The translations under genes and the position numbers were made by a program. From the NCBI GenBank assembly GCA_942493095.1, contig OW818675.1, positions 2,190,001 to 2,222,000 on the forward strand: a stretch of 32,000 nucleotides of DNA. Direction: 5' to 3'. The DNA comes from Candidatus Electronema halotolerans (GTDB lineage Bacteria; Desulfobacterota; Desulfobulbia; Desulfobulbales; Desulfobulbaceae). This document shows, one piece after another, positions 1 to 32,000 of this stretch; positions within the stretch are counted from its first letter, which is position 1, and each line of letters begins with the position of its first letter. Below the pieces are notes generated by a model. The model had not been told where the DNA came from. It made no database searches and saw only the letters and a program-made list of their open reading frames with translations.

Positions 1-378
1 AGCTTCCGGCACGGATGTGTCCGCATCATCCTCCATGCTGAAGAAGTCATCCAAGCCCTCATCTTCCGCTTCAGGCAGGGCCGCCGCTTCAGCATCCGGC
101 TCTGGAGCTTCCTCATCGCCGAAGAGACTTTCAGCTCCAAGCATGTCGTCAGCATCGTCCAAACTCAAACTGGCCGCGTCCTCAGCTTCAGCTTCCGGCA
201 CGGAAGTGTCCGCATCATCCTCCATGCTGAAGAAGTCATCCAAGCCCTCATCTTCCGCTTCAGGCAGGGCCGCCGCTTCAGCATCCGGTTCTGGAGCTTC
301 CTCCTCGCCGAAGAGACTTTCAGCCCCCAGCATGTCGTCAGCATCGTCCAGACTCAGACTGGCCGCTTCCTCTGCTTC
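1..378. repeat. Two tandem 189-nt (63-codon) units inside the acidic-protein gene
   Basis: Positions 1-189 and 190-378 align without gaps and differ at 9 positions by my count (about 95% identity). Diverged copies continue to about 1000. More copies may lie left of the window edge. Confidence 0.9.
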
Positions 379-3185: not shown

Positions 3186-3791
3186 TCAGAGCAGCTTCTT
3201 CTGCACCGACACCACGGTCAGAGAAATTATTTTTTTCAGAGTTTCAGGCACATTATGTCCGGTCAGCGCACTGGCCTCAAAATAGGGAACCTTGAGCTTG
3301 CTGTTCAGGTCCTGCTCCAGCACCGAAGTGGGCAGAATAGGGATGCCCTGATCGCGCAGGTCAACCTTGTTGTACTGCATGACCAAGGGGATTCTGAAGA
3401 TTGACTCCTTGTATTCCTTGAGGTTTTCGTGGAGCTGATTCAGGGAGCGGATGTTCTTCTCCCGCATGGCCTCCTGCGCGTCCGCGACAAAGACAAGGCC
3501 GTCAACCCCTTTCAGGACCAGCTTGCGGGTGGCGTTGTACTTCACTTGGCCAGGCACGGTGTAGAGCTGAATTTTCAGCTCATAGCCTTTGATCTTGCCC
3601 ATGTCAAAGGGCAGGAAGTCGAAGAACAGAGTCCGGTCGCCGTGCGTTTTCAGACTGACCATCTCAGACTGAATCTGCTTGCTGAATTTCCGGTTGATGT
3701 ACTCAAGGTTTGAGGTCTTGCCGCCCCGGCCAGGCCCGTAGTAAACAACTTTTACTTGAACAATTTTTTCGCGCAGATTTATGAAACTCAA
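3186..3791 (-). CDS. mglA: MglA-family Ras-like small GTPase
   Basis: The 201-aa ORF begins MSFINLREKIVQVKVVYYGPGRGGKT (P-loop). It has TLFFDFLP (switch I region), LYTVPGQ (the MglA-type G3 with Thr in place of the Ras Asp) and QYNKVDL (G4). It is collinear with my recollection of M. xanthus MglA, including the MSFIN N-terminus. TTG start with a GGAGAC RBS about 5 nt upstream. Confidence 0.85.
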   Translation of the reverse strand: MSFINLREKIVQVKVVYYGPGRGGKTSNLEYINRKFSKQIQSEMVSLKTHGDRTLFFDFLPFDMGKIKGYELKIQLYTVPGQVKYNATRKLVLKGVDGLVFVADAQEAMREKNIRSLNQLHENLKEYKESIFRIPLVMQYNKVDLRDQGIPILPTSVLEQDLNSKLKVPYFEASALTGHNVPETLKKIISLTVVSVQKKLL

Positions 3792-7854: not shown

Positions 7855-8367
7855 TCAAACCACAGACGTGCTGTCAACGTAACCTTGCTGGAGCAACAGC
7901 TGCCTAATCCGTGTTGTCCATTCTCTCCCCTGCGGCTCCAGCACACACCGCCGCCCTGTTTCTCCGGCTGCCGCCAAGGTGATGTCCAGCCGCTGGGCCG
8001 GGCAGATGCTGCCGAGCCGGTCCGGCCATTCAATCACGGTCAGGCCGCTGCTGCCGATATAATCAAGCAGCCCGGCCCCTTCCACATCCTCCTCGCCAGC
8101 CAAGCGGTAGCAGTCAAGATGAAACAGGGGCAGGCGGCCCTTGTATTCATGAAGCAGGGCAAAGGAGGGGCTGCTGACATATTGCTCCGGCGGCACTTCC
8201 AGCCCGGCGGCAATGGCTTGGGTCAGGGTGGTCTTGCCGACCCCAAGCCCGCCGTGCAGCAGGATCACGTCCTTGGGCCGAGCCAGCCTGCCGAGCTGAC
8301 GGCCCAGAGTGGCTGTGGCTGCCAAATCAGGCAGCAGCAGCTCTGTTGCCATTATTTGGCCCACCAT
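7855..8367 (-). CDS. tsaE: tRNA threonylcarbamoyladenosine (t6A) biosynthesis ATPase TsaE
   Basis: About 165-170 aa with Walker A LHGGLGVGKTTLTQAIA and the YjeE-type ..SPSFALLHEY.....LFHLDCYRL motif. The alternative start at 8352 (MATELL) overlaps the upstream stop as TAATG. Confidence 0.85.
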   Translation of the reverse strand: MVGQIMATELLLPDLAATATLGRQLGRLARPKDVILLHGGLGVGKTTLTQAIAAGLEVPPEQYVSSPSFALLHEYKGRLPLFHLDCYRLAGEEDVEGAGLLDYIGSSGLTVIEWPDRLGSICPAQRLDITLAAAGETGRRCVLEPQGREWTTRIRQLLLQQGYVDSTSVV

Positions 8368-10175
8368 GTCCAGAGGAGCTGATAGGGATTGTAGTAAAGC
8401 GGCAGGGTCTCCGGCATCTTGAACTTATCGGCAAAAGCCACCCGGTGATAGGCCAAATACCAGTTCGGCACCACATAGTAGCCATACCAGAGCACCCGGT
8501 CCAACGCCTTGCAGGCCGCAGTCAGCTCGTCCTGCGTCTTGGCGTAGATCAGCGAATCCACCAGACTGTCAACAACCGGCGACTTGATCCCTGCCAGATT
8601 GCCGCCGCCGTCCCGATCCGCAGCAGCGGAAGTCCAGTAATTGCGCTGCTCATTGCCCGGCGACTGCGACTGGCCAAAGGTGTTGACAACCATGTCAAAA
8701 GCAAAGCTCCTGATCCGGTCCTGATATAAAGCCGGGTCGATCATCCGATAGGTAGCCTTGATGCCCAGCTTGGCCAGATTCTTGACATAGGGCGCCATGA
8801 CCCGGTCAAAAAAGGCTTGATCAAGAAGAATTTCAAACTCCATCTTGCTGCCGTCCTTGGCGGTCAACACGCCGTCCTTGACCTGCCAGCCCTCCTCGTT
8901 GAGCAGCTTTTTAGCTTGGCGCAGGTTGCCGCGCAGACTGTTGGGCGGAGTCGTGCTTGGCGGAGTGAGCGGAGTCGTGAAGACTTCCGGCGGCATCGCA
9001 TCAGGATATTTCTCAGCCAAGGGTTTGAGCAGCTTCAGCTCGGCCTCGCCGGGCAGGCCGGTGGCAGCCAAGTCCGAGTTGCTGAAATAGGAATTCGCCC
9101 TTGTGTATTGCTTGAAGAACAGGGATTCATTGGTCCATTCAAAATCAAAAGCCAGACCAAGGGCCTGCCGGACTTTGCGGCTCTTGAAGAAAGGCCTCCG
9201 GGTGTTGAAGACAAAGGCCTGCATTCCCGCATTGTTGTGATGAGGAAATTCCTTTTTGATCAGCTTGCCGCTGTCAAAGAGGCGGCCTGTGAGGTCACGC
9301 TGCCACTGCTTGGCCACATTGACCCACATCAGATCAAAATCACCAGCCTTGAAGGCCTCCACGCCAACGACCTGATCCTTGAAATATTTGATCGTGATGG
9401 TGTCAAAGTTGAACATGCCTTTGCGGGCCGGGTGATCCGCAGCCCAGTACTTGGGATTGCGTCTGTAGGTGAGGGTCTTGCCCGGATTGACATCCTTTTT
9501 CTCAAGAATGTACGGCCCGCTCCCGACTGGCGGCAGCATCTGATCACCCTTGCTCCCTTCGCCAAAGCCGTGCTCCTCGTAGAACTTCTTGTTCAGCACC
9601 GGTAGCTGGGCGGCGATCAGATGCAGCTCGCGGTTGACCTTGGCAAAGTTGAAGCGGATTTGCAGCGGCCCCAATATCTCGGCATTGCTGATGTCCTGAA
9701 AATACATCTGATAGAACGGATGGGCCTTGCCGCTCTTGAGCGTGTCCAAGGAGTATTTGACATCCTCGGCTGTGACCGGGTTGCCGTCCGAGAACTTGGC
9801 CTGCTCGTTCAAGGTGAAGGTGACGGACTTTCTGTCCGCTGCCAGCTCAATGTCCTTGGCGATCAGGCCGTAGGCGGCGAACGGCTCGTTCAGGCTGCTG
9901 ACCGCCAGCGGCTCAAAGACCAAGTCATCCAAGCCAAAGGGAGCAATGCCCTTGAGCGTAAAAGGATTCATCTTGTCAAAGCTGCCCAGATCGTGCAGGG
10001 TCAGACTACCGCCCTTTTTTGCCTCTGGCGAAGTGTAGTCAAACTGGGTGAATCCGGGAGGATATTTCAGCTCGCCGTCAATCGAAATTCCGTGCGCGGC
10101 AAGGCTGGCTGACGGGACAAAAAAAGCAAGGGCGGCTGCGAGCAGGCTGGAAAAAACTGTTTTGAGCATGGGCAT
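8352..10175 (-). CDS. Periplasmic ABC-transporter substrate-binding protein, family 5 (peptide/oligopeptide, YejA-like)
   Basis: The long ORF has signal peptide MPMLKTVFSSLLAAALAFFVPSASLA when started at 10175. Length and sequence pattern fit family-5 SBPs. No permease or ATPase genes are adjacent. Confidence 0.75.
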   Translation of the reverse strand: MPMLKTVFSSLLAAALAFFVPSASLAAHGISIDGELKYPPGFTQFDYTSPEAKKGGSLTLHDLGSFDKMNPFTLKGIAPFGLDDLVFEPLAVSSLNEPFAAYGLIAKDIELAADRKSVTFTLNEQAKFSDGNPVTAEDVKYSLDTLKSGKAHPFYQMYFQDISNAEILGPLQIRFNFAKVNRELHLIAAQLPVLNKKFYEEHGFGEGSKGDQMLPPVGSGPYILEKKDVNPGKTLTYRRNPKYWAADHPARKGMFNFDTITIKYFKDQVVGVEAFKAGDFDLMWVNVAKQWQRDLTGRLFDSGKLIKKEFPHHNNAGMQAFVFNTRRPFFKSRKVRQALGLAFDFEWTNESLFFKQYTRANSYFSNSDLAATGLPGEAELKLLKPLAEKYPDAMPPEVFTTPLTPPSTTPPNSLRGNLRQAKKLLNEEGWQVKDGVLTAKDGSKMEFEILLDQAFFDRVMAPYVKNLAKLGIKATYRMIDPALYQDRIRSFAFDMVVNTFGQSQSPGNEQRNYWTSAAADRDGGGNLAGIKSPVVDSLVDSLIYAKTQDELTAACKALDRVLWYGYYVVPNWYLAYHRVAFADKFKMPETLPLYYNPYQLLWTWWAK

Positions 10176-10258
10176 GATCCGTTGTTGAAGTTGGCAGATT
10201 GCAGTTGCAGTGTCTTGGCAGAATAACACGCCGGAAGGAATGCGGAAAGGAGAGATGC

Positions 10259-10286
10259 AGGGGGCCAGGCACGCCCCCTGTTTTTG
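10259..10286. terminator. Hairpin with T5 run next to the end of the duplicated rcnA 3' segment
   Basis: caggggg (10259-10265) pairs with ccccctg (10275-10281) over a 9-nt loop, followed by ttttt on the plus strand. No plus-strand gene ends here. On the minus strand it follows the TAA at 10292-10294 but lacks a clean U-run. Confidence 0.3.
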
Positions 10287-10291
10287 CAGGC

Positions 10292-10500
10292 TTAGAAGTA
10301 AATGCTTCTGATGGAGTGAAACATGGTGTAGGAGCCGAGGGCAATGATCAGCACTGCGCTGGCAATGCCCATCATTCGGGCAAAGTCAAAATTCTCACTG
10401 ATCCTGTCGGTCAGACGGCGGCTTTGAGAAAGAAGTGCTATCAAGCCGAGACTGAAGAAGAGCATGACTGTCAGAGCTTGGGCTGTACCAGATGTTTTTG
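10292..10500 (-). pseudogene. Degenerate, out-of-frame tandem copy of the 3' end of the rcnA-like gene
   Basis: The 80-aa ORF (..ALTVMLFFSLGLIALLSQSRRLTDRISENFDFARMMGIASAVLIIALGSYTMFHSIRSIYF) parallels the C-terminus of the upstream gene (..ALTATLFFSLGLGGVMITIGVVLSQSRHLTSRISEHFDFARKMGIVSAVLIIALGSYTMYYSVKNIW). 10321-10484 aligns with 10511-10692 apart from a 21-nt gap. Confidence 0.75.
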
Positions 10501-11420
10501 ACTGAATAATACATGGTGTAAGAGCCGAGCGCAATGATCAGCACCGCGCTGACAATGCCCATTTTCCGGGCAAAGTCAAAATGTTCACTGATTCTGCTGG
10601 TCAGGTGGCGGCTTTGGGAGAGGACCACGCCGATGGTGATCATCACTCCGCCCAAACCGAGACTGAAAAAGAGCGTGGCTGTCAGAGCCTGGGCCATCCT
10701 GCCTGTGCCAATGGCAGCCACCAGCGCGGACAGAGCTGCCGGGCAGGGAATGATGCCGCCGGACATGCCGAGCAGCAGCAGCTCCATCTTGTTGGAGCCT
10801 GACTTGGCCACAGCCTTGCCGTGGTTATGGTCATGCTGCGCAGCAGGCTGAGGATGTTTGGCAGCATGTTCATGCGGCTCATGCAGATGATCATGATAGC
10901 CGCCGTCATGTTCATGCGGATGGACATGCGGATGATGATGCTCATGGTCGTGCTCAGGCGGATGCGGATACTCATGCTGATGACCGTGCTCATCCTTGTC
11001 CTCATGGGTGTGGCTGTGGGTGTGGGGATGATGATGCTCATGGCTGTGCGGATGCGGCTGCTCATCATGATGGTGATGGCCGCCAAACAGATGGAAATGG
11101 CCGTGGCCGGAGCCGGAGAGCCGCTGCCGCAGCATCCAGATGCCGACAATCAGAATCAGGCCGGCGGAAACCAGACCCAGCCAGTTGTGGAGTGCTTCGC
11201 TGGAATAGGTTTTCGACAGGAACCAGGCAGCAAGACCCAATAAAATGACGCTGAACGTATGGGTGATAGTGACGATGGTGCCAAGCAGCACGCCGTCCAT
11301 GGCCCGCCCTTTACTGCCGACCATATAGGCCGCAATCAGGGTTTTGCCGTGACCGGGTTCAAAGGCATGCACAGCTCCAACAATGATGGCGTACAGGTAA
11401 ATCGTCAGGGTGGTGGTCAT
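10395..11420 (-). CDS. rcnA: Nickel/cobalt efflux transporter, RcnA family, with a very long His-rich loop
   Basis: HAFEPGHGKT and GGIIPCPAA motifs resemble E. coli RcnA. The central loop is packed with H/E/D (..HGHFHLFGGHHHHDEQPHPHSHEHHHPHTHSHTHEDKDEHGHQHEYPH..). The likely start is the ATG at 11420 (MTTTLTIYLY), preceded by a GGAGAC RBS. The C-terminal tail of about 30 aa comes from reading through the duplicated segment in the wrong frame. Confidence 0.8.
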   Translation of the reverse strand: MTTTLTIYLYAIIVGAVHAFEPGHGKTLIAAYMVGSKGRAMDGVLLGTIVTITHTFSVILLGLAAWFLSKTYSSEALHNWLGLVSAGLILIVGIWMLRQRLSGSGHGHFHLFGGHHHHDEQPHPHSHEHHHPHTHSHTHEDKDEHGHQHEYPHPPEHDHEHHHPHVHPHEHDGGYHDHLHEPHEHAAKHPQPAAQHDHNHGKAVAKSGSNKMELLLLGMSGGIIPCPAALSALVAAIGTGRMAQALTATLFFSLGLGGVMITIGVVLSQSRHLTSRISEHFDFARKMGIVSAVLIIALGSYTMYYSVKNIWYSPSSDSHALLQSRLDSTSFSKPPSDRQDQ

Positions 11421-11771
11421 AAAGTCTCCGTCCTTTTTTTGGATTGAAATGTTGCTGCGGTGTTCTTTGTAAAACCATATCACCCTCTGCCCGCGCAATG
11501 GGGTCTGCGCCTCATTTGTCTGGGCAAAACTCCTATGCGTCCGGGCAGGCTGCCTGCTTGCCAAGCGTGATCACAGGAAGGCAGTTTTATAATCTCAAGC
11601 AGTTATTTCATCTCGGCACCGCATGGCGGCAACAGGATAATACAAAAAAATATCTTGTGTGAGTTACATGAGTTAGAAAGACTGACCGCTGTTCTCCCCA
11701 GCCTGCCGTCCGGCAAACTTGACGTGGCAGTGGCAGCAGCAGCACTCACAGCTTGCTGCTCCAATCTGCTC

Positions 11772-12437
11772 TTACCCAACCTTCCGATATTTCAGAATCA
11801 TGCAGGTTGGGTAAATCAGTCCCAGAATGACCTGCTCGCTGGCCGGGAAATCGGTCATTTCCTCCAGCAGCTCAAGCCGGGCCGCTTGCAGCACTGCTGG
11901 ATCAAGGTAATCCATCATGGTGTGGCCCTGCTCGGTCAGCTTGATGGAGCGGTTGAAGATGTAGGACGTGACCAGCCGCTTGGCATAATAATCGGAATTG
12001 CCGTCATTGATGCGGCTTTCCAGCAGATTGCGGAAGGGATGCTTGGCAAGAACCATGATGACCCCGCCGGGTTTGGCGACGCGGATCATCTCCAGCAGCG
12101 TTTTCGGCACATCCTCAGTGTGCTGAATCGCGTAAAAGCTGGTTACAAGGTCAAACCTTTCATCGTCAAAAGGAAGCTGTTCCATCGGGGCTTGGACAAA
12201 GACACCAGACACCTTTTCCTGTGCCATTGCAATCTCTTGTTCAGAGATGTCCACGCCAGAGACCGCAGCTCCTTGAGCAACATAACAGGCTGCATCATGA
12301 CCTGAACCGCAGCCGACATCAAGAATGGCTTTTCCTTGTAAATCCGGCAGGAGTGAATAGAAATACCTCCTCGTCGCCTCCTCCATATCCTCGGTTCCCT
12401 GCGCATATTCCTCTGCAAACTGATCGTAGTTTCCCAT
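11772..12437 (-). CDS. Class I SAM-dependent methyltransferase
   Basis: 221 aa with SAM-binding motif I ILDVGCGSGHDAACY and the acidic loop VSGVDISEQ. The substrate cannot be determined from sequence. Confidence 0.8.
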   Translation of the reverse strand: MGNYDQFAEEYAQGTEDMEEATRRYFYSLLPDLQGKAILDVGCGSGHDAACYVAQGAAVSGVDISEQEIAMAQEKVSGVFVQAPMEQLPFDDERFDLVTSFYAIQHTEDVPKTLLEMIRVAKPGGVIMVLAKHPFRNLLESRINDGNSDYYAKRLVTSYIFNRSIKLTEQGHTMMDYLDPAVLQAARLELLEEMTDFPASEQVILGLIYPTCMILKYRKVG

Positions 12438-12469
12438 AGTTCTTCAAGAGGCTGAATGTTGCCGGGTGT

Positions 12470-12919
12470 TTAGCTGTTGGTGTTGTTTGTCCCCTTTTTC
12501 GGGCCAGGGCGGAATGCTTTGAGAAAATCAAAAAGATATTGGGCCTGCTCCTTGATTTCCGGGTAGGCGTTTTCAAATTCGCGGATGCGTCGGGAAGCAC
12601 TGTACAGCCCTTCCATGCAGCGGGAGGTGGCTTGCAGCCGCTGGTGATAGACCGACTGGTGCAGCCGTTCCAGCAGTTGTTCAATGGGTTCAAGGCGTTT
12701 GACCTCAGCAATGCCCTGCTCAAGATCAGCCATGACCGCAGGCGCAAGGCGGAGAGTTTCGGCGTGCTCCTGCACCAAGCGGCTGGTGTCGTCCACCATT
12801 GCCTGATAGCCGGGCAGGGCTTTGTGCAGGGCCTGCACGTCCGCGCCATCCAAGGGAGGCGCAAGCTCCACGCCCAGCAGTTCTGCAACTTGTTCGATAG
12901 TGACGTTTTCGTTCGGCAT
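12470..12919 (-). CDS. Hypothetical protein (149 aa, helical), probably co-transcribed with the methyltransferase
   Basis: Clean ORF with a GGGAGA RBS before the ATG at 12919 and a 32-nt gap to the next gene. I recognise no motif. Confidence 0.55.
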   Translation of the reverse strand: MPNENVTIEQVAELLGVELAPPLDGADVQALHKALPGYQAMVDDTSRLVQEHAETLRLAPAVMADLEQGIAEVKRLEPIEQLLERLHQSVYHQRLQATSRCMEGLYSASRRIREFENAYPEIKEQAQYLFDFLKAFRPGPKKGTNNTNS

Positions 12920-12955
12920 TGCAAGTTCTCCCTGTAAGTTGTTTTCGAGATGGAG

Positions 12956-12971
12956 ACAGGTTTAAACCTGT
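12956..12971. promoter_or_regulatory. Perfect 16-bp palindrome acaggtttaaacctgt, candidate operator
   Basis: Read directly from the sequence. It lies 37 bp upstream of the start codon at 12919. Confidence 0.35.
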
Positions 12972-13104
12972 GGCTGGCCGCTGTCAAGGGAAAAGAGCGG
13001 GGAAATTTTTAGGCAGGAGGAAGGGCGAGGCTGGGTGGAGGCAGAAGCGGACTTGGAAAAGGCAGGCGGTTTCTGGGTTGGAGGCAGAAAAATGCTGGCT
13101 TGAA

Positions 13105-13363
13105 TCAAGAATTTCCTTTTTTGGAAGAGAATTTATTCGTCTCTGATAAGTTCTCCCCGCCATGCAGACAGCCGACCACGCCGTTCTTGCAGAAAATCTC
13201 CAGCGCATCCGGGCCGACAGCAATTCCCCTTTGCTCATTTTGAAATTTAAGCGGTTCTATGATTTCAAATTGAACCATTACTTCCTCTCCAGAATGCAGG
13301 CCCGGCAAGCTTCACATTGGGGATGAACAACCCACCGTCTTTGACGATTGCATTTACGATCAT
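13105..13363 (-). pseudogene. Small ORF apparently split by a +1 frameshift (N-terminus resembles AF2212/DUF104-type small antitoxin-like proteins)
   Basis: The ATG at 13363, preceded by a GAGGGA RBS, gives MIVNAIVKDGGLFIPNVKLAGPAFWRGSNGSI*. The listed 67-aa ORF (..LHSGEEVMVQFEIIEPLKF..) continues in the next frame from the same spot. The family assignment is weak. Confidence 0.3.
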
Positions 13364-13537
13364 TTTTTCCCTCTTCAGCAAAGGTTGGCTTAGATTTTAA
13401 TTTTTCGTCTCTTCTTCAATATTCCGCTGAACCTTTCCTTGGCGTTCCAGCATGGCTTCTGTGCGTTTTTGCCAAAATTCAAGCTGCTCCTGCACTGACA
13501 TGCCAGCCCTGTACTCCACCCGCTTTTCTCAAATTCC

Positions 13538-13888
13538 TCAATCAGCTTCTTCACTTCCTCCAGAACCCAAGTCATGGTCACTTAAAGCCCATTTAATCAG
13601 AAATATTATTATTTGAAATATGCTTAACGGTATCAGGACAAAAGCAGAAGCGCAGCATGCAAGCAGCATATACGGAATAATATTTTTTAAAGGTATATTG
13701 ACTTCAAAAATATCATATAAGCTCAATCCCCACCAGATTACAGGAAAGAGAGACAAAGCAACTCCTGCCCCAAATCGGATAAGTGCTTCCCTAAGATTCT
13801 GCACAAAAATCTTATTTCCGGTAATCTGCTGAATTATCACTCCAAAAAAAGTAATAATTATTGCCGTACATCCTATTATGAACAGCAT
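13538..13888 (-). CDS. Small integral membrane protein (116 aa, about 3 TM segments) in an AT-rich patch
   Basis: Strong AGGAGG RBS before the ATG at 13888, 18 nt after the ABC-F stop. Hydrophobic segments include IIGCTAIIITFFGVII, GVALSLFPVIWWGLSL and LLACCASAFVLIPLSIFQIIIFLI. Confidence 0.6.
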   Translation of the reverse strand: MLFIIGCTAIIITFFGVIIQQITGNKIFVQNLREALIRFGAGVALSLFPVIWWGLSLYDIFEVNIPLKNIIPYMLLACCASAFVLIPLSIFQIIIFLIKWALSDHDLGSGGSEEAD

Positions 13889-13905
13889 AATCAGCCTCCT
13901 ATCTT

Positions 13906-15852
13906 CTATTGCTCCATCTCCTCAATCTTCCCCTGCGCTTCCTCCCAGACCGCATACTGCCGCTCCAGCCGCCGCCGCACCTCATTGTAGTCCTTGCTGA
14001 CCTTGGCCCACTGCGCCTGATCCGCATACAAATCAGGGTCAGCCATCTGCGATTCCAGCTCGATCTTGCGCTCCTCCAACTGCTCAATCTCTTTCTCCGC
14101 CGCCTCAGCTTTTTTCTTCCACGGCCTCAAGACAGCATTGAGCTGCTCCTGCTGCTGGGCGCGCTGCCGCCGTTCCTCCTTGCGATTGACTGATTGCTCT
14201 GCTGCTTTGACGACTGGCTGCGCCTCGACCTTTGCTGCCGCCTCCAGCCGCTGACGAATTGCCAAGTAATCGTCAATATTGCCCTCGTGCAGCACGGCCT
14301 GCTGCTCGCGAATTTCCAGCACCTTGTTGACAAAAGAATTAACAAAGCTGCGGTTGTGCGAGACCACAATGATCGTGCCCTCGTACTGGGCCATGGCCTC
14401 CTGCAAAACCTCCTGCGAGCTGATGTCAAGATGGTTGGTCGGCTCATCAAGCAGCATCAGGTTGGCGGGCTTGACCAGCATTTTTGCCAGCGCGACCCGG
14501 CTTTTCTCGCCGCCGGACAGCACCTGCACCTTTTTATCGACCTCGTCGCCGCTGAAGAGAAACGTGCCCAGCAGCGAGCGCACCTTGGTCACGGTCAGGT
14601 CTTGGGAGCCATGATACACTGTGTCCAAGATGCTGTACTGGCCGTCCAGCTCCTGAGCCTGATGCTGGCCAAAATAGGTCATAATCACGTTATGCCCCTG
14701 CCGAACCGTGCCGCTGTCGGCTGCTTCCAGCCCGGCCATGATTTTCATCAGGGTGGTCTTGCCTGCGCCATTCACACCGACTATGGCCAGCTTGTCGCCC
14801 CGCCGCAGAGTGAAGGAGACATCGCGCAAAATCGTCCTGCCATCAAACTGTTTGCTCACGCCTTCTAATTGCAACACGTCGCGGCCCGAATCAGCAGCAG
14901 GCGGAAAAGAAAAGCGAATCTCCCGTTCGCTCTCAGCCAGCTCAATCCGTTCAATCTTTTCCAACTGCTTGACCCGACTCTGCACCTGCTTGGCCTTGGT
15001 CGATTTGGCCCGGAAGCGGGTGATGAACTGCTCGGCCTGCTTGATCATGGCCTGCTGATTGTCGTAGGCAGCCCGCTCCAGCTCCATGCGCTGGGCCTTT
15101 TCAATCAGATATTGCGAATAGTTGCCTTTATAGGCGGTCAGTCTGCCCAGACTCAGCTCCCAGGTTTTTGTTGTCACCCGATCAAGGAACGAGCGGTCAT
15201 GGGAGATGATCATCATCGCCCCCTGATACTGCTGGAGAAAGTCCTCCATCCACGTCAGCGAGTCCAGATCAAGGTGGTTGGTCGGCTCGTCGAGGAGGAG
15301 CAAGGCGGGCTGGCGCAGGAGCAGCTTGGCTAACAGCAGGCGCATGATCCAGCCGCCGGAGAACTCGGACACTGCTCTGTCCAAATCCGCTTTGGCAAAG
15401 CCAAGGCCGAAGAGAATTCGCTCAATCTGCGGGCGGATGCGGAAGACATCATGCCCGTCGAGCAGATGCTGCAACTCGCCTTGACGTTCGATCAGGGCAG
15501 GCAACTCCGGGCTGTCTTGGCCCAGCTTGGCCAGCTTCTGGCTGATTTCCTCGAACTCTTGCTGCTGCTGCAATGCTTCCGCAAACGCGCTCTCCGCCTC
15601 GTCGTACAAGGTGCGGCTGCCCAGCTCAATGGTGATTTCCTGCGGCAGATAGGCGACAGTGAACCACGAGGCCCGGCTGACCACGCCAGGGTCGCTTTCC
15701 TGCTCGCCGCAGATGATTTTCATCAAGGTCGATTTGCCCGTGCCATTGACCCCGATAAGGCCGATGCGGTCGTTGACGTGAATCTGGGCGGAAACATCAC
15801 GGAACAGATGCTTGTATCCGTGCTGGAGACTGAGATTGCTGATGGTGAGCAT
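13906..15852 (-). CDS. ABC-F family ATPase (two ABC domains plus a C-terminal coiled coil; Uup/YbiT-like)
   Basis: 648 aa. It has two Walker A motifs (GVNGTGKST, GVNGAGKTT), two signature motifs (FSGGW.., LSGGEKSR) and two Walker B motifs (LLLLDEPTNHLD, LMLLDEPTNHLD). There are no TM domains. The C-terminus is rich in K/E/Q. Confidence 0.9.
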   Translation of the reverse strand: MLTISNLSLQHGYKHLFRDVSAQIHVNDRIGLIGVNGTGKSTLMKIICGEQESDPGVVSRASWFTVAYLPQEITIELGSRTLYDEAESAFAEALQQQQEFEEISQKLAKLGQDSPELPALIERQGELQHLLDGHDVFRIRPQIERILFGLGFAKADLDRAVSEFSGGWIMRLLLAKLLLRQPALLLLDEPTNHLDLDSLTWMEDFLQQYQGAMMIISHDRSFLDRVTTKTWELSLGRLTAYKGNYSQYLIEKAQRMELERAAYDNQQAMIKQAEQFITRFRAKSTKAKQVQSRVKQLEKIERIELAESEREIRFSFPPAADSGRDVLQLEGVSKQFDGRTILRDVSFTLRRGDKLAIVGVNGAGKTTLMKIMAGLEAADSGTVRQGHNVIMTYFGQHQAQELDGQYSILDTVYHGSQDLTVTKVRSLLGTFLFSGDEVDKKVQVLSGGEKSRVALAKMLVKPANLMLLDEPTNHLDISSQEVLQEAMAQYEGTIIVVSHNRSFVNSFVNKVLEIREQQAVLHEGNIDDYLAIRQRLEAAAKVEAQPVVKAAEQSVNRKEERRQRAQQQEQLNAVLRPWKKKAEAAEKEIEQLEERKIELESQMADPDLYADQAQWAKVSKDYNEVRRRLERQYAVWEEAQGKIEEMEQ

Positions 15853-16036: not shown

Positions 16037-16112
16037 TTTACTGGTCGCTGCAATTGCTGCGGTCGCTGCAAAGTGATCAGCAAACTGAAAAAATTCCAGA
16101 AGGAGGAATGTG

Positions 16113-16646
16113 ATGAGGTTCAAGGTGTTGTTGCTGACTGTTTTTTTGGTGGCTCTGGCGGCTGTTCAAACGCAAGCTGCTGGAAACATCGGAGTTATCA
16201 GGCATATAGGAGATCACGTTGTTCACAGTCCGCCGTTGCAGACCAAAAAGGACCTCTGGCAGATGATGCGGAATCCAAAGGTTTGGCAGGACATGAAGAA
16301 TGCGCTGAAAAGGGCGCAATGCCTGGGAACCAAAACAGGCAGGTGCATTGATCTTGCCGGAGAGATTCATGCCTTGTTTCCAGCCAGCTACGATGCCTTC
16401 AAGGAGCAGAAGGCCGAAGAAATCCGTGATTCTCTCTATGAAAGCGGCTCTGTCATTTTTAATTGGATGATGTACAGGAGCAAAGGCAAGGGGAGAATAA
16501 AAGTGTCCGGGAAAATAAAATGGGGAGGCAATTATGCACTCCCGGCTTATGAGTTTTCCATTCCCTACAAGAATCGCATTTATGTTTTCACCGTGCCCAA
16601 GGAATGCGGCAACTTGGCCTTGGTAAAGAAACTTTGCTTGCCATAA
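16113..16646 (+). CDS. Secreted hypothetical protein (signal peptide)
   Basis: The ATG at 16113 follows an AGGAGGA RBS (the track starts 3 nt earlier at GTG). The N-terminus MRFKVLLLTVFLVALAAVQTQAAG is a typical Sec signal. I recognise no domain. Confidence 0.65.
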   Translation: MRFKVLLLTVFLVALAAVQTQAAGNIGVIRHIGDHVVHSPPLQTKKDLWQMMRNPKVWQDMKNALKRAQCLGTKTGRCIDLAGEIHALFPASYDAFKEQKAEEIRDSLYESGSVIFNWMMYRSKGKGRIKVSGKIKWGGNYALPAYEFSIPYKNRIYVFTVPKECGNLALVKKLCLP

Positions 16647-16755: not shown

Positions 16756-19700
16756 ATGACCACCCCTGCCCAGCAGACCGCTGAATTCAGATCCAAAGCA
16801 CTTGAAGCCAATTTTCAGCAAACCGCCAGCAAGGTTGAGATTTCCCCCCGCTATGCCCCGCTGCGGGAGGCTGTGGCCCGCTATCAGGGGCTGTCCGCCC
16901 GGCTGGAGCACCTGCTTTACGAAATAAGCCACCCTTTCCGCAACTGGCAGCTGATCATCAGCGAGCTGCGGCCTTTTGTCCTCAAAAATTTCAACCATTA
17001 CCTTGGCCACCCGCAGGGGCCGGAATGCTTTGCCCTGTTCAGCGGCATTTTTTTGGATGCGCTCAGGGAGTCACGGAAAAACAGCAAAGTGACCGCCCTG
17101 ACCGTGGAGGCTCTGCTCGCCTTTGCTGACAAGGTGATCAGCTCGCTCAAGCCGGAAACCCTGCCGCTCTACGGCCCGCAGCTCAACAATTTTTTTGATC
17201 AGCTGGCCCGGCTTGATGAAATTGATAGCAGCCTGATGATGCAGATGGTGCAGGGCCATCATCCGATCAAAAAAATGGCGGTCCAGCTCCTCAGCTTGGG
17301 TCGCGCAACAGCTTTTTCCTGCATCCCTGCGGCCCGGCTGCTGCAAAAAATTCTCATCACCAACTACGAATACTGGTTGAGCGAGGATGACCCGCAGCCT
17401 TGGTTTGAGCAGCATTGCGGCGGCTTCTGCGACAAGTGGGAGGCCAGGCCGGAGATGGCGGCCATTGCTCATGCCCGGATGCGCGAGCATCTCCAGACCT
17501 TGGAGCAGATCGATCTGGAGGAAGACCCGCATCAGGCCTTGAGCAAACTGCTGGAACTGCCCGCCCATGTTGACATAGTCCGCCTTTACCGCGAGATTCC
17601 CGGCAAGCTGGGCGAGGGCATTGAAGGCGGCGATGCCTTTTACATGGAAAACCGGAAGCTGCTCTTTCTCTTCCGCATCATGGACACTTCCGGCCTCTCG
17701 CTCATTCATGAGGAGAGCCTGCGGGAGATCAACCGCTCCTTGGTCCAGCTCATCCGCAAGCAAAACTTTGACGAGATAGAGCAGTTCTTCACCACCGCTT
17801 TCCAGCTCCTCAAGGCCAATGTGCGCAAATATCCGCACACTTCGCTCCAGTGCATTCAGGTCATCGGCGGCGAGGTGTTCAAGCGGGGCAATTCCCGCTT
17901 AGTTGAGGCCTTCCTCTTTGAGGCGGTGCGCTTCGGCTTTCAATACGCCAATGTCATGGGCGTGGATGAGGACTGGCAGCCGATCAGCAACCCGGCTCAT
18001 CTGGCCAACATCCGGGTCTGGCTCAACCTGATCATGCAGGAGCCGAAGTGGTGCTCAACCCTGTTCTCGGCCCTGATCATCAACATTCGCCTCTCCGGCA
18101 CCTGCGTCAAGGACACGGACCTCTTTCAGCGCGACATCAGCCAGCTCCTCAACCACCCAATCGGCCCGATCTACAACTTGGCCAAGCAGTTCACCAAGCT
18201 GATGCCGGTCTTTTTCAACGAGATCGGCGCGGAAGGCGAGCTGCGCGATGTCTCGACCGAGCTGGATGAGCTGCACAAGCGGCGCGATGTCCTGATTCAC
18301 TTTCTCCGCAAGCAGTCGCATGTCGAGTCCTCCAACCTGATTGTCGGCTTTATCCGGGCCATTTTTCTTTTCTGGCTCAATTTGGACAAGAAGCCGCTCA
18401 AGGCCTACCTGCCTGAAGAAATCCTCAGTCAAGTGACGGTCTCCGGCCCCTTTGTCGATGAGCTGCATGTCCTTGCCCGGCGGCTGCGTGAAGAACTGGA
18501 ATGGAACAGCATTGACGAGCTCCTGACCTGGGACAGAACTGAGCGTCATGCCTGGCTGGAGCGGCAGGAGGACATCTCTGCGGATGAGCGCAGGCGTTTT
18601 GACCTGCTGGTGCGCATGTTCCGGCTCCTGAACCACAAGTACAGCCTTGGCATGGAGGAGCTGCGCGAACAGCTTCAGCAGGCGGCCCGGTCCGGCTTCC
18701 CGGAAATGGAGCAGCTTTTGGAATCCTTGCAGGAGGATGAGCCGTACAGCTGCTTGGATGCCCTGCTCACCCATCTGGAGCAGCTCAAGGAAATCATCCT
18801 CAGTGAGCAGAAATTCGAGCCAAAGGAGGAAATTTACTACAAACGGCACATTGCCGTGGATATTCCTTCCGTCTATGGCCGCTATTCAGAGCGCAAGTTC
18901 GATGCCCTTGGTCTGGCCTTCCGGCTGGAGAATTTGGCCAACATCTACTTGGAACGGCTGACCCGGTCCATCAATCTCGGCTTTATCACCCAAGCCACTT
19001 TCATCCGCATTTCCGAGGCCCTGCATCTCTATCTGCGCGCCCTGAAAGTGGATGGCATCAGCAGCCGCCGCTTGGACACCTACGCCAGCCTGCTCGCCTC
19101 GTCAATCAGCATGAAGCGCTTCACCTACACCCAGCATTTGGACATCATGCGCGGGCTGTCCGAAGGGGTCAAGGATGTGATTTATGCCTATTACACCAAT
19201 ATTCATCAGAACAACCTCTCGATCATCATTCCTCAGATTGGCCGGGAAAATCTGCTGCTCAAGTTCCGCCCGCTCTGGGATGAGGAGGACATGCCCTCCA
19301 CAGTCCATCGCCTCTCAGAAGCCTTTTTCCGCGACCTGATCGCCACCACCTTCGGCCTCCAGCACTTGGACAACTTCATCACCAAGATCATGCAGACCTT
19401 GGAGGCCCAGAAAGACATCCTTGACGAGCAGACCTTGGACCTGCTCATGACCTACAACCCGGAGCAGACCATCTCCCTGCTCTACCAGGAAAATCTCCGC
19501 ACCCACAATCTCATTCATCTCGGCAACAAGGGCTTCAACCTAATGCTCTTGGCCAATGACGGCAAGCCTGTGCCGCCCGCCTTCATCATCACCACTGAGA
19601 TTTTCCGCTGCTGGCCGGCTGTGCAGCGGTTCACCAAGGCCAAGGAGGAATTCATGCAGCGGGTGCGGGCCTCGATCACGGCCTTGGAGGAGCGGACAGG

Positions 19701-21003
19701 CCGCGAATTCGGCTCGCCGGAAAATCCGCTCCTGCTTTCAGTGCGCTCCGGGGCGGCCATTTCCATGCCCGGCATGATGACCACGGTCCACAACGTCGGC
19801 CTGAATGAGGATTTGCTCGACGAGCTGTGCGCCAGACACCCGGAGCAGGAGTATTTTCTCTGGGACACCTACCGCCGCTTTCTCCAGTCCTGGGCTATGG
19901 GCGAAGGCATGGCCCGCGATGAGTTTGGCGCACTGATGAATGCGCACAAGAAACGCTACAATGTCAAGCTCAAGCGGCAGTTCACTCCTGCCCAGATGCG
20001 CGAGCTGGCCTTGGAATACCGCAACGCCATGCGACGGCATGGCTATAATGCGCCGGAAGACCCGTGGCTTCAGCTTGTCGGCGCAGTGGAGATGGTGCTG
20101 GAGTCGTGGAGCACCATCAAGGCCCGCCAGTACCGCCATCTCATGGATGTGTCTGATGACTGGGGCACAGCAGTGATAGTCCAGACAATGGTCTATGGCA
20201 ATCGCAACTTTAAAGCAGGCAGCGGCGTGCTCTTCACGGCCCATCCCTACCGCAAGGTGCGACGGGTGGCTCTCTGGGGTGATTACGCCTCCGGCGACCA
20301 AGGCGAGGACATTGTTTCCGGCTTAGTCACCAGCTACCCGATTTCAATGGAGCAGGCGGAGCTGGACGGCAGGCCAGAGGAAGACACCTTGGAGCGCAAA
20401 TTTCCAGCCATTTATGAGCGGCTTCTCAGTATTTCCCGTGATTTGGTCTATACCAAGGGCTGGAATCCGCAGGAAATCGAGTTCACCTTTGAAGGCCCTG
20501 CACCGGAGCAGCTCCACATCCTCCAGACCCGCGACATGATCACGATCAAGAAGAAGGAGCATTTCCGGGTCTTTGTCGAATCAGCAGAGCAGCAGGCCGC
20601 AGTGCTGGGCAAGGGCATTGGCGTGAGCGGCTCGGCCCTGTCCGGCTTGGCCGTGTTCACCGACGAGAACATCCGCCAGCTCAGGCAGGAGCAGCCGGAC
20701 ATGCCGCTGATTCTCATCCGGCAGGACACGGTGCCAGAGGACATTAAGGAAATTTCCCTTGCCGACGGCCTGCTCACGGCTCGCGGCGGCCAGACTTCCC
20801 ATGCCTCAGTGGTGGCCACCCGCTTGGAAAAGACCTGCGTGGTCGGCTGCCGGGATCTGCAAGTCTTTGAAGGCGCGGAACATGCTCTGATCAACGGCTT
20901 CACCATCCGCTTCCGCGATCCGGTCTCCATTGACGGACGCAACGGCCTCTTCCTGCGCGGCATTCATGAGACACGGGAGGAGGTGCATATTCTGCCGCTG
21001 TAG
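16756..21003 (+). CDS. 1415-aa fusion protein: about 900-aa unrecognised helical N-terminal region plus PPDK-type ATP-grasp (nucleotide-binding) and phospho-His swivel domains; no PEP/pyruvate TIM-barrel domain
   Basis: From about nt 19500 the translation is collinear with the N-terminal half of pyruvate phosphate dikinase (..HLGNKGFNL.., NPLLLSVRSGAAISMPGMMTTVHNVGLN, DDWGTAVIVQTMVYGN, GDQGEDIVSG, EIEFTFE..LHILQTRD). It then reaches the swivel-domain motif GLLTARGGQTSHASVVAT (His codon 20800-20802). The ORF ends about 65 aa later. The ATG at 16756 with a GAGG RBS is preferred over the TTG at 16690, which lies inside the hairpin. Confidence 0.8.
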   Translation: MTTPAQQTAEFRSKALEANFQQTASKVEISPRYAPLREAVARYQGLSARLEHLLYEISHPFRNWQLIISELRPFVLKNFNHYLGHPQGPECFALFSGIFLDALRESRKNSKVTALTVEALLAFADKVISSLKPETLPLYGPQLNNFFDQLARLDEIDSSLMMQMVQGHHPIKKMAVQLLSLGRATAFSCIPAARLLQKILITNYEYWLSEDDPQPWFEQHCGGFCDKWEARPEMAAIAHARMREHLQTLEQIDLEEDPHQALSKLLELPAHVDIVRLYREIPGKLGEGIEGGDAFYMENRKLLFLFRIMDTSGLSLIHEESLREINRSLVQLIRKQNFDEIEQFFTTAFQLLKANVRKYPHTSLQCIQVIGGEVFKRGNSRLVEAFLFEAVRFGFQYANVMGVDEDWQPISNPAHLANIRVWLNLIMQEPKWCSTLFSALIINIRLSGTCVKDTDLFQRDISQLLNHPIGPIYNLAKQFTKLMPVFFNEIGAEGELRDVSTELDELHKRRDVLIHFLRKQSHVESSNLIVGFIRAIFLFWLNLDKKPLKAYLPEEILSQVTVSGPFVDELHVLARRLREELEWNSIDELLTWDRTERHAWLERQEDISADERRRFDLLVRMFRLLNHKYSLGMEELREQLQQAARSGFPEMEQLLESLQEDEPYSCLDALLTHLEQLKEIILSEQKFEPKEEIYYKRHIAVDIPSVYGRYSERKFDALGLAFRLENLANIYLERLTRSINLGFITQATFIRISEALHLYLRALKVDGISSRRLDTYASLLASSISMKRFTYTQHLDIMRGLSEGVKDVIYAYYTNIHQNNLSIIIPQIGRENLLLKFRPLWDEEDMPSTVHRLSEAFFRDLIATTFGLQHLDNFITKIMQTLEAQKDILDEQTLDLLMTYNPEQTISLLYQENLRTHNLIHLGNKGFNLMLLANDGKPVPPAFIITTEIFRCWPAVQRFTKAKEEFMQRVRASITALEERTGREFGSPENPLLLSVRSGAAISMPGMMTTVHNVGLNEDLLDELCARHPEQEYFLWDTYRRFLQSWAMGEGMARDEFGALMNAHKKRYNVKLKRQFTPAQMRELALEYRNAMRRHGYNAPEDPWLQLVGAVEMVLESWSTIKARQYRHLMDVSDDWGTAVIVQTMVYGNRNFKAGSGVLFTAHPYRKVRRVALWGDYASGDQGEDIVSGLVTSYPISMEQAELDGRPEEDTLERKFPAIYERLLSISRDLVYTKGWNPQEIEFTFEGPAPEQLHILQTRDMITIKKKEHFRVFVESAEQQAAVLGKGIGVSGSALSGLAVFTDENIRQLRQEQPDMPLILIRQDTVPEDIKEISLADGLLTARGGQTSHASVVATRLEKTCVVGCRDLQVFEGAEHALINGFTIRFRDPVSIDGRNGLFLRGIHETREEVHILPL

Positions 21004-21087: not shown

Positions 21088-22086
21088 ATGGCCTTTCTTC
21101 TTGTTCTCCTTGCCGCCTGCCTGCTTGACCTGCTCATCGGCGATCCTCGCTGGTTTCCGCATCCAGTGCGGCTGATCGGCTGGCTGGCAGCGCGCATGGA
21201 AATCATCACCCGCCGTCTGCCAATGCCAGCACGGCGCAGCGGCGGCCTGACCGTCCTGCTGGTGCTCCTTGCCACGGGCGGAGCCAGTGCCGCGCTGCTC
21301 CTGCTGCTGGCCATGCAGCCGCAGCCGCTCTTTCTCGCCGTAACCGCCTTTGCCTTGTACACCACTTTTGCCGCCCGCGACCTGCTCAAGCACGCCTTGG
21401 CAGTTCATGCCGCCCTTGGCGAAAGCATCGGGGTGGCTCGCCAGCAGGTCAGCATGATTGTCGGCCGTGACACCAGCCAGATGGATGAGGCTGCTGTCAT
21501 CCGCGCCTGCGTGGAAAGCGTGGCTGAGAACATGGCCGACGGCATCATTGCCCCGCTCTTCTGGGCAACAGCGGGCGCAGCTCTTGCTTTGCCAGCAGGC
21601 GGCCATTGGCCAGCGGCCTGCGCCGTGCTGGCAGCCATGCTCTACAAGGCCATCAGCACTATGGATTCCATGTTCGGCTATAAAAACGAACGCTACCTGT
21701 ATTTCGGCTTCTGCCCAGCCAAATTGGACGATGCCGCCAACTTTTTCCCGGCCCGGCTGGCCGCACTCGCCCTTGTCGCGACCGCACCCATCATCGGCGG
21801 CAGCTTGCGGCAGAGCTGGCGCATCCTTTGGCGCGACCATCAAAATCATGCCAGCCCCAATTCCGGCTGGCCGGAAGCAGCAGCTGCAGGCGCGCTCGGC
21901 CTGCAGCTCGGCGGGGATGCGGTCTATTTCGGCAAAATCGTCAGCAAGCCGCTCATCGGCGAAGCACTTGCCCCGCCGCAGCAACGCCATATCCTCCTCG
22001 TCTGCCGCTTAGTTCTGACTGCCTCGCTCCTCTGCCTGCTTCTCTTAGCCGGATTGTTTTCCCTCCTGCCGCTCCTCTGCTCCTGA
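21088..22086 (+). CDS. cbiB: Adenosylcobinamide-phosphate synthase CbiB/CobD
   Basis: The membrane protein begins MAFLLVLLAACLLDLLIGDPRWFPHPVRLIGW, the characteristic CbiB N-terminus. Also present are ..IVGRDTSQMDE..ESVAEN..DG..APLFW.. and ..ASPNSGWPEAA.AGALG..LGG. Confidence 0.9.
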   Translation: MAFLLVLLAACLLDLLIGDPRWFPHPVRLIGWLAARMEIITRRLPMPARRSGGLTVLLVLLATGGASAALLLLLAMQPQPLFLAVTAFALYTTFAARDLLKHALAVHAALGESIGVARQQVSMIVGRDTSQMDEAAVIRACVESVAENMADGIIAPLFWATAGAALALPAGGHWPAACAVLAAMLYKAISTMDSMFGYKNERYLYFGFCPAKLDDAANFFPARLAALALVATAPIIGGSLRQSWRILWRDHQNHASPNSGWPEAAAAGALGLQLGGDAVYFGKIVSKPLIGEALAPPQQRHILLVCRLVLTASLLCLLLLAGLFSLLPLLCS

Positions 22087-31012: not shown

Positions 31013-31263
31013 GCAGGGCATAGCCCATGATTTTCCATCAACCCCCTGTCAGTTTTTTCAAAGACCTCGGCCTGCTGTTGAGATTATCCACAGCACTCAG
31101 AACCTGCTGCACAGCAATGTCAAGCAGCTCCTGCCCTTCCTGTGAAAACGCGCTGCTTAACAATTGCCTTTCCCGGCAGCATCCTGTATTTTATTTTCAT
31201 CTGCCGGACATCATCTAAACTGCGCAGGGCAGTCTGTCCTTTTTTCAAACCTGCTGAAAAATC

Positions 31264-32000
31264 ATGCTGAACGTTGGCATTATCGGGGCTTCCGGCTACA
31301 CCGGAGTTGAACTGGCCCGCATTCTTTCCGATCATCCTGAAGTCCGGCTGACCGTGGCCACCTCGCGGCAGTTTGCCGGAAAACCGCTTTCCGAGGTCTT
31401 TCCCAACCTGCGCAAGCGGGTTGACCTGATCTGCGAAGACTTGACCCCAGAGCAGCTTGTTGACCGGGCTGATTTCTTTTTTGCCGCAGTGCCGCATAAG
31501 ACTGCGATGGCCTTGGTGCCGACCTTTTTGGCCGCAGGAAAAAAGGTGGTTGATCTGAGCGCGGATTTTCGCATCCGCGATGCAGCAGTGTATGAGCAAT
31601 GGTATCAGCCGCACAGCTGCCCGGAGCTGCTGGCCGAGGCAGTCTATGGTCTGCCGGAGCTGTATCGCGAGCAGGTGAAAAGCGCACGTCTGACAGCCAA
31701 TCCTGGCTGCTATCCGACCTCGATCATTCTCGGCTTGGCCCCCTTGCTGCGGGAAAAGCTGATCGACCCGGCCACTCTGATTGTTGACTCCAAGTCCGGC
31801 ACCTCTGGCGCGGGCCGTTCGCTCAATGTCGGCACCCTGTTCTGCGAGGTCACAGACGGCTTCCGGCCCTACAAAGTTGGCGGCGCGCACCGTCACATCC
31901 CGGAGATTGAGCAGGAGCTGTCCGCGCTGGCTGGCAGCGAGGTGATCATCTCCTTCACCCCGCACCTGCTGCCGATTTCACGCGGCATCCTCAGCACCAT
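31264..32000 (+). CDS. argC: N-acetyl-gamma-glutamyl-phosphate reductase, N-terminal about 245 codons (runs off the window)
   Basis: Not in the ORF track because it has no stop. My translation from the ATG at 31264 reads [27 protein letters not shown]....[13 protein letters not shown]......[13 protein letters not shown]......FCEV......[16 protein letters not shown]. It includes the catalytic PGCYPT Cys motif of ArgC. Confidence 0.85.

Follow-up and report, generated by a model that had tools for sequence, protein, structure and literature searches.

A PPDK-type ATP-grasp and phospho-histidine module fused to a large helical domain of no known family in Candidatus Electronema halotolerans and its relatives

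A 32,000-nucleotide stretch of the genome of the cable bacterium Candidatus Electronema halotolerans (the whole of which is referred to here as the window) contains a gene for a 1415-amino acid protein in which an ATP-grasp domain and a swivelling phospho-histidine domain, both of the pyruvate, phosphate dikinase (PPDK) type, follow a helical N-terminal domain of 905 amino acids. By architecture and by its scores against curated profiles, the protein is outside the PPDK, PpsA, VadK-type, and rifampin phosphotransferase (RPH) families. Across three phyla the dikinase-like gene is physically coupled to the gene for glyceraldehyde-3-phosphate dehydrogenase (GAPDH), and it frequently opens a gap-pgk-tpiA-secG operon. 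The reading we favour, with about an even chance of being right, is that the protein is an active ATP-dependent histidine-relay dikinase of a distinct family, with the novel N-domain as acceptor half-site and the GAPDH/3-phosphoglycerate (3-PG) node as its partner. The gene and its parts are as follows (window coordinates).

16756..21003, plus strand: complete coding sequence, 1415 amino acids; helical domain, then PPDK-type ATP-grasp domain, then phospho-histidine swivel domain
16756..19470, plus strand: N-terminal all-alpha region, amino acids 1-905, no known family or fold
17653..18390, plus strand: hyper-conserved core of the N-domain, amino acids 300-545; candidate acceptor or ligand site
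18829..18891, plus strand: invariant beta-hairpin motif EIYYKRHIAVDIPSVYGRYSE, amino acids 692-712
19504..20550, plus strand: PPDK-type ATP-grasp nucleotide-binding domain, amino acids ~917-1265 (PF01326; alignment to PPDK residues 15-340)
20596..20985, plus strand: phospho-histidine swivel domain, amino acids ~1281-1410 (PF00391; alignment to the PPDK His-domain structure 2FM4)
20800..20802, plus strand: codon of the catalytic His1349 (PPDK His455), inside GGQTSHASVVAT

The C-terminal part matches Pfam PPDK_N (PF01326; amino acids 963-1203, E 6e-26, 92 bits against a gathering score of 27) and the PEP-utilizers mobile domain (PF00391; amino acids 1318-1397, E 6e-16, 58.3 bits against 23.1), both above their gathering scores and in the order of the histidine-relay superfamily that uses phosphoenolpyruvate (PEP). 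The last 535 amino acids align with residues 15-513 of C. symbiosum PPDK (E 2e-74), and the reading frame stops at a point that corresponds to PPDK residue ~514, where the PPDK linker to the TIM barrel starts. The motif GGQTSHASVVAT is at amino acids 1344-1355 and 66 residues follow His1349, while neither Pfam nor the PPDK alignment found the PEP/pyruvate TIM barrel (PF02896) in the protein. An earlier note, made from the letters of this DNA, had put the end of the frame about 65 residues past the histidine with no TIM barrel, and had described a complete nucleotide-binding domain and a catalytic-histidine motif; both descriptions are borne out, and careful alignment brought to light no loss of catalytic residues. 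All ten of the PPDK catalytic positions examined are invariant in 51 of 51 diverse members with 37-82% identity to the window protein. Nine are identical to PPDK (in PPDK and window numbering, K22 and K925, R92 and R997, G101 and G1006, M103 and M1008, E323 and E1242, Q335 and Q1257, R337 and R1259, T453 and T1347, H455 and H1349), and the sole substitution is of D321 by an invariant Glu (E1240). An AlphaFold2 model of residues 290-1415 (pLDDT 86.6, pTM 0.73) superposes in Foldseek on the PPDK structures 1KBL and 1DIK over 540 columns with a root-mean-square deviation of 3.5 Å; PpsA, RPH (E 3e-5), and HpeI (about 1e-3) are more distant matches. Judged by these alignments, the C-terminal ~500 amino acids are an ATP-grasp and swivel-histidine module of the PPDK lineage with its catalytic residues intact. 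Formation of the phosphohistidine at His1349 from ATP is well supported by analogy, because a comparable truncated PPDK, VadK (Rv1127c) of M. tuberculosis, autophosphorylates on the equivalent histidine with ATP/Mg2+ (PMC13400623).

The N-terminal region has no such relatives. Amino acids 1-900 have no Pfam or NCBIfam match, even at E<=1, and comparison of the N-domain with PDB sequences (phmmer) gave only noise at E>1. Two AlphaFold2 models predict an all-alpha architecture, the second with one beta-hairpin at amino acids ~690-711, and in Foldseek searches of the PDB both models gave for the N-domain only generic alpha-solenoids (importins, HEAT/ARM) with TM<0.2 and E>4e-3. The earlier note had called this a helical region of about 900 amino acids without a recognisable motif, and the sequence and fold searches agree with it in matching the region to no characterised family. 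The N-terminal 900 amino acids alone are 65-95% identical within Desulfobulbaceae-type homologues, on par with the catalytic part. Conservation of the whole protein peaks at amino acids 300-545, where column identity is 0.92-0.96 within Desulfobulbaceae, and amino acids 692-712 are also among the best-conserved parts; selective constraint bears more strongly on the N-domain than on the catalytic module. The core contains the motifs GVDEDWQP (402-409), DTDLFQRD (453-460), NEIGAEGELR (488-497), and HFLRKQSHVES (515-525). In the same 51 sequences, core positions D453, T454, D455, E493, R497, D504, D511, R518, K519, and H522 are invariant, and further family-wide invariant positions include K628, Y629, K696, R697, H698, P704, S705, and G708; the family-wide forms of the motifs are DTDLFQRD, NEIGAEGELR, HFLRKQxHVES, and KRHIAxDIPSxYG. 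Most of the invariant N-domain positions are charged or polar, and the motifs fall in lower-confidence loops of an otherwise confident model. Such a pattern, taken from alignment and model, is what a site that binds phosphate, metal, or substrate would be expected to show, as would loops that become ordered when a ligand or partner binds. The N-domain thus plausibly provides a substrate or partner site, and we infer that it is the acceptor site.

When the N-terminal 900 amino acids alone were compared exhaustively with 1.84 billion cluster representatives, 598 clusters matched at E<=1e-3 (counted at the 50% identity level) and 204 at E<=1e-30, with identities falling as low as ~29%; the full-length matches have 1335-1540 amino acids, with the query region at their N-terminus. 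More than 120 database clusters (90% identity) with lengths of 1412-1444 amino acids are 67-95% identical over the full length, and all of the named ones are from Desulfobulbaceae or near Desulfobulbales relatives. In 41 of 46 distant full-length members, the strict motif GGxTSHA is found 39-77 amino acids before the C-terminus (mostly 55-75). Of the remaining five, three retain the histidine in variants of the motif (GGATCHAA, GGAASHAA), one carries Tyr for His, and the C-terminus of the last looks frameshifted. Named members are from Desulfobacterium, Syntrophobacteraceae, Syntrophorhabdus, Desulfocicer, Thermodesulfatator, Thermosulfurimonas, Thermosulfuriphilus, and Magnetococcus marinus MC-1, and their only database labels are "PEP/pyruvate-binding domain-containing protein," "PPDK," or "PEP synthase." When one genome per GTDB species was scanned with the family-specific pattern KRH[IV]Ax[GD]IPS, at least 565 matching stretches were found among the species-representative genomes, and the 80 best loci include Thermodesulfovibrionales/Nitrospirae. 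The family ranges over Thermodesulfobacteriota, Magnetococcales, and Nitrospirota, with fusion and truncation alike throughout. No split forms of the family were found: the apparent ones, P0185 and P0136, which had been candidates for natural proteins consisting of the N-domain only, are contig-end truncations. Since they are kept across distant homologues, fusion and TIM-barrel loss alike are, on sequence comparison, ancient, stable, and obligate, and the family is a large one and not a one-off. No prior characterisation of it was found in the literature searched, including that on cable bacteria, Syntrophobacter, and Desulfobulbus.

A subfamily represented by P0170 (1540 amino acids; L167:1166-5788) has an added N-terminal hemerythrin domain, and its catalytic His is changed to Tyr (GGATSYAA). 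Its members may be pseudo-enzymes that derive from the family and are linked to a sensor. There is no GAPDH neighbour at L167, and the context there is uninformative.

Genomic context was surveyed across homologues, as had been suggested in the earlier note, by unbiased clustering of the flanking open reading frames in 84 loci. One neighbour stands out: GAPDH is encoded at 58 of the 84 loci, always within 3 kb and with a median gap of 163 bp, and at 44 of the 63 loci (70%) with 2 kb or more of flanking sequence on each side. There are two arrangements. The gene for a canonical 334-amino acid GAPDH (TIGR01534, 437 bits, above the cut-off) directly precedes the dikinase-like gene on the same strand, chiefly in Desulfobulbales, while a divergent "long" GAPDH of 411-454 amino acids is encoded immediately downstream, with gaps typically of 15-40 bp, in Desulfobacterales, Syntrophobacterales, Thermodesulfobacteriales, Nitrospirota, and Magnetococcales; in some loci both forms are encoded. 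The link was then tested from the other side, on an independent set of metagenome loci found with the long GAPDH, of which 68 were informative. The dikinase-like gene is directly upstream on the same strand in 50 of these (74%), with a median gap of 96 bp, and downstream of the long GAPDH are genes for phosphoglycerate kinase (PGK, 19 loci), triose-phosphate isomerase (17 loci), and SecG (11 loci), which is the classical gap-pgk-tpiA-secG operon. GAPDH, pgk, and tpiA are the informative context, and it is found in lineages other than that of the window. The earlier note had pointed to cbiB, starting 85 nucleotides downstream, as the adjacent gene; cbiB is indeed next (Pfam CobD_Cbib, E 2e-98; ATG at 21088), but it begins 84 nucleotides after the stop of the dikinase-like gene, a trivial correction. 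This adjacency is absent from all other genera examined; it is incidental, not conserved, and without functional information, and a functional link to cbiB or cobalamin was rejected.

The long GAPDH appears to be uncharacterised itself. It scores 322-346 bits against TIGR01534, under the equivalog cut-off of 367, and is a type I paralogue with four insertions that retains the catalytic residues Cys and His together with both phosphate-site motifs and in which the NAD-specifying Asp is replaced (AINDL to VVNxGR). In the lineages that have it, the long form is the GAPDH of the gap-pgk-tpiA-secG operon. Examples are L051:14203-15450, L078:4980-6227, L085:14181-15425, and L007:14380-15663, with ~30 more loci and the metagenome loci L087-L166.

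Other neighbours recur in fewer loci. RapZ and nitrogen-related phosphotransferase system (PTS-Ntr) genes are near the dikinase-like gene in eight loci, mostly Syntrophobacterales-type: at L004:2070-6947 it directly follows rpoN-hpf-ptsN(EIIA-Ntr)-rapZ-EIIA(Man)-GNAT, and a RapZ gene is upstream in L023, L048, L054, L061, L062, L066, and L080. These neighbours hint at a link to a nitrogen-PTS regulatory cluster. An ATP-driven PTS kinase resembling Enzyme I was considered as the role of the protein and rejected, the rpoN-ptsN-rapZ-EIIA context being confined to those eight loci. In two Desulfobulbaceae loci without a GAPDH neighbour (L001:12511-15480 and L002:12342-15227), a heavy-metal P-type ATPase with an HMA domain is encoded after the dikinase-like gene, and an ArsR-family regulator is encoded downstream in ten other Desulfobulbales-type loci.

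In the favoured reading, the module would move the beta-phosphate of ATP onto His1349 with release of AMP and Pi or PPi, by analogy with PPDK and M. tuberculosis VadK. The tethered His domain would then swing to a second site built by the invariant charged loops of amino acids 300-545 and 692-712, so that the N-domain would take the place of the PEP/pyruvate TIM barrel of PPDK as acceptor half-site. Because the gene is coupled to GAPDH and often heads the gap-pgk-tpiA-secG operon, the acceptor would belong to the triose-phosphate/3-PG segment of glycolysis or gluconeogenesis. We infer both the onward relay of phosphate to the N-domain and the identity of any particular acceptor. The reaction preferred among the candidates, though rather unlikely when taken by itself, is a reversible phosphorylation of a carboxylate: 3-PG + ATP + Pi <-> 1,3-bisphosphoglycerate + AMP + PPi. 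On established thermodynamics, a 3-PG dikinase reaction is chemically and energetically plausible and would be near equilibrium, like that of PPDK. It would give GAPDH a dedicated partner, feeding it in the gluconeogenic direction with a stronger drive than that of PGK and, in reverse, yielding ATP from AMP and PPi. Slightly more doubtful again is the full proposal of a new central-carbon enzyme, a 3-PG (or other C3-acid), phosphate dikinase of novel catalytic fold that works directly with the co-encoded GAPDH. If this were true, the forward reaction would relieve energy-starved anaerobes of the thermodynamic bottleneck that PGK/GAPDH poses in gluconeogenesis, and the reverse reaction would convert AMP and PPi, by-products of sulfate activation, back to ATP. 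Such recycling would fit the carrier lineages, which we take to be mostly sulfate reducers, sulfur disproportionators, or sulfur oxidisers.

A weaker variant concerns enolase. The closed Candidatus Electronema genome has no enolase, and an unknown route that completes glycolysis has been proposed (PMC10030654, PMC10926707); the dikinase-like protein may take part in that route. An enolase bypass is unlikely as the general role of the family, since the family is universal in Desulfobulbaceae, including enolase-bearing Electrothrix (members in Ca. E. scaldis, P0019, and strain YB6, P0007/L018).

Several observations weigh against a relay dikinase at the GAPDH node. The window's own genome and other Desulfobulbaceae have no GAPDH link; in the cable bacterium the gene has left gap and stands alone, with purifying selection equally strong. 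PGK shares the operon with the dikinase-like gene in many loci, and because the step is already covered there, a simple need for a 3-PG dikinase is counted against. The conformer of the AlphaFold2 model has the His domain docked onto the ATP-grasp domain, as in 1DIK. The Tyr subfamily retains the N-domain despite having lost the catalytic His, so the N-domain may have a function that is independent of the phospho-relay. Enzyme I has an HPr-binding subdomain, a precedent for helical docking, and by that analogy the helical domain could be a protein-docking platform and not a catalytic site.

Docking is also the basis of the main rival, which is possible at distinctly less than even probability: a regulatory histidine kinase of the VadK type, in which the helical domain is a docking scaffold and the protein tunes flux by controlling or phosphorylating an enzyme of glycolysis, the co-encoded GAPDH being the most obvious one. 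The weak fold resemblance of the N-domain is to alpha-solenoid protein-interaction scaffolds only, and the dikinase-like gene is first in the gap operon, which is the place of the CggR regulator in Bacillus. The position after rpoN-hpf-ptsN-rapZ-EIIA in Syntrophobacterales and the existence of a variant fused to a hemerythrin sensor, with Tyr for the catalytic His, would also suit a regulator, as does the behaviour of the truncated PPDK VadK, which autophosphorylates and also binds enzymes of the methylcitrate cycle (PMC13400623). The N-domain itself, however, is less easily reconciled with a scaffold: its invariant clustered charged loop residues (DTD, EGELR, RKQxH, KRH) look more like those of a phosphate or metal site, a scaffold would rarely be 65-95% identical over 900 amino acids within one bacterial family, and the GAPDH partner varies by lineage (canonical or long) while the N-domain motifs do not.

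The possibility that the protein simply does what its database names say, making or using PEP as a PPDK or PEP synthase with the non-homologous helical domain as the pyruvate/PEP site, is unlikely. The module is of the PPDK lineage (a partial TIGR01828 match and the 1KBL superposition), and an operon shared with lower-glycolysis genes (gap-pgk-tpi) would fit an enzyme of entry into gluconeogenesis. However, the scores against TIGR01828 (339 bits, cut-off 843, with only profile positions 17-335 and the His domain matched) and TIGR01418 (PEP synthase; 60.5 bits, cut-off 739.75) are far under the cut-offs, and Pfam finds no PEP-site architecture in the protein. To our knowledge, every domain swap in the superfamily changed the acceptor, and there is no precedent for replacement of the TIM barrel with the reaction kept.

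A glucan (glycogen) dikinase like plant GWD, which would pass the phosphate of the histidine to storage polyglucose bound on the N-domain, is very improbable. A gene for a GT5 glycogen/starch synthase is upstream (glgA, then gap, then the dikinase-like gene) in 20 loci, and GWD is similar in size and also has PPDK_N and phospho-histidine domains; but the glgA linkage is almost wholly confined to Desulfobulbales-type loci and could be inherited synteny, neither a carbohydrate-binding module (Pfam) nor an (alpha/alpha)6 fold match (Foldseek) was found, and the domain order of GWD is the opposite. A split or decayed ordinary PPDK, with its PEP/pyruvate domain in a separate gene or lost by mutation, has next to no probability: only the labels PPDK and PEP synthase speak for it, while more than 200 full-length homologues share a common C-terminal end position, which excludes the frameshift that the earlier note had considered, the extra 900 amino acids are under strong selection, fusion and truncation are kept across distant homologues, and the separately encoded domain that the note had also considered is effectively refuted as far as adjacent genes are concerned, there being no PF02896 gene in the window or among the recurrent neighbours of the 84 loci.

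Glycolysis and gluconeogenesis are usually seen as fully catalogued. Here a protein of ~1400 amino acids, whose identity within a bacterial family is 65-95% and which databases mislabel as "PPDK" or "PEP synthase," is encoded at the head of a gap-pgk-tpiA operon in many anaerobes, and its largest and best-conserved domain is without known fold or function. Because the gene heads this core glycolysis operon in many other anaerobes, the protein probably has a part, not described before, in central carbon metabolism. A metabolic dikinase would mean a new reaction or mode of energy coupling in sulfate reducers, syntrophs, and cable bacteria, and metabolic reconstructions that count the protein as PPDK would be corrected. 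A regulatory protein would extend the recently discovered VadK paradigm, in which histidine kinases derived from PPDK control metabolic flux, beyond actinobacteria.

In the window, the open reading frame runs on the plus strand from the ATG at 16756 to the stop codon at 21001-21003 and encodes a protein 100% identical to a Candidatus Electronema halotolerans database protein (P0001). The ATG at 16756 is taken as the start because GAGG is 9 nucleotides upstream and Met1 is nearly invariant among homologues. An open reading frame for a small secreted protein and an ABC-F ATPase gene are upstream, and cbiB and a DbpA-type helicase gene are downstream. Domain searches of the window proteins found no GAPDH, PGK, GlgA, or PF02896 gene, and nothing of relevance emerged when it was scanned for Rfam families, tRNAs, and promoters or terminators.

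The open reading frame upstream (16110-16646, plus strand, 178 amino acids) is inside a 900-bp gap of lower GC content before the dikinase-like gene; its N-terminus resembles a signal peptide (MRFKVLLLTVFLVALAAVQTQAAG), and it has no Pfam match and no homologue in any of the loci compared. At 8352-11564 (minus strand), an SBP_bac_5 solute-binding protein (625 amino acids) is encoded beside a nickel-transport membrane protein of the NicO/DsbD_2 type (389 amino acids). This pair is of possible interest because the conductive fibres of cable bacteria are reported to contain a nickel cofactor (PMC12093952). Open reading frames without a Pfam match are at 17-1756 (plus strand, 579 amino acids), 11655-12305 (plus strand, 216 amino acids), 12319-12987 (minus strand, 222 amino acids), and 31120-31965 (minus strand, 281 amino acids). 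The GC content of positions 13001-14000 is 0.446, markedly below the ~0.55 of the whole window. A 201-amino acid small GTPase of the Ras family, a group uncommon among bacteria, is encoded at 3186-3791 (minus strand; Pfam Ras, E 5e-11).

Among known systems, PPDK (EC 2.7.9.1; C. symbiosum 1KBL/1DIK) is the closest in its catalytic module, sharing the ATP-grasp and swivelling phospho-histidine domains at ~30-32% identity over ~540 columns; the window protein differs in having neither the C-terminal TIM barrel (PF02896) nor the second linker, and PPDK has nothing like the 905-amino acid helical domain. PpsA (pyruvate, water dikinase), under whose PEP synthase name the family is often annotated, also has the ATP-grasp and His domains, but it is far more distant than PPDK and has the TIM barrel. 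Like the window protein, VadK (NF004531/PRK05878) derives from PPDK and stops after the His domain. However, it is an actinobacterial protein of ~490 amino acids (~490-534 in its family) with only two domains and an association with the methylcitrate cycle, whereas the window protein has 1415 amino acids with the fused N-domain, its family has a glycolytic context, and it scores 287 bits against NF004531, where the cut-off is 456. RPH, HpeHI, MarK, and PigC/HapC are similar in combining an ATP-grasp domain, a terminal swivel histidine, and a family-specific acceptor domain, and RPH acquired a new acceptor with its swapped third domain, converting ATP to AMP and Pi (PMC4844700). The acceptor domain of RPH is unrelated in fold and is inserted between the ATP-grasp and His domains, while here the candidate domain is N-terminal; the score against NF041857 (RPH) is 25.7 bits, the cut-off being 999, and Foldseek aligns only the shared modules. 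Plant GWD (R1) is comparable in being a histidine-relay dikinase of ~1400 amino acids with a large substrate-binding region at the N-terminus. That region is made up of beta-sandwich CBM45 carbohydrate-binding domains and is not helical, it is followed by the His domain and then the nucleotide domain, and no sequence or fold match of the window protein to GWD was found. Set against these systems, the relay mechanism is familiar; what is new is the candidate acceptor domain, in both fold and function, together with the probable metabolic role.

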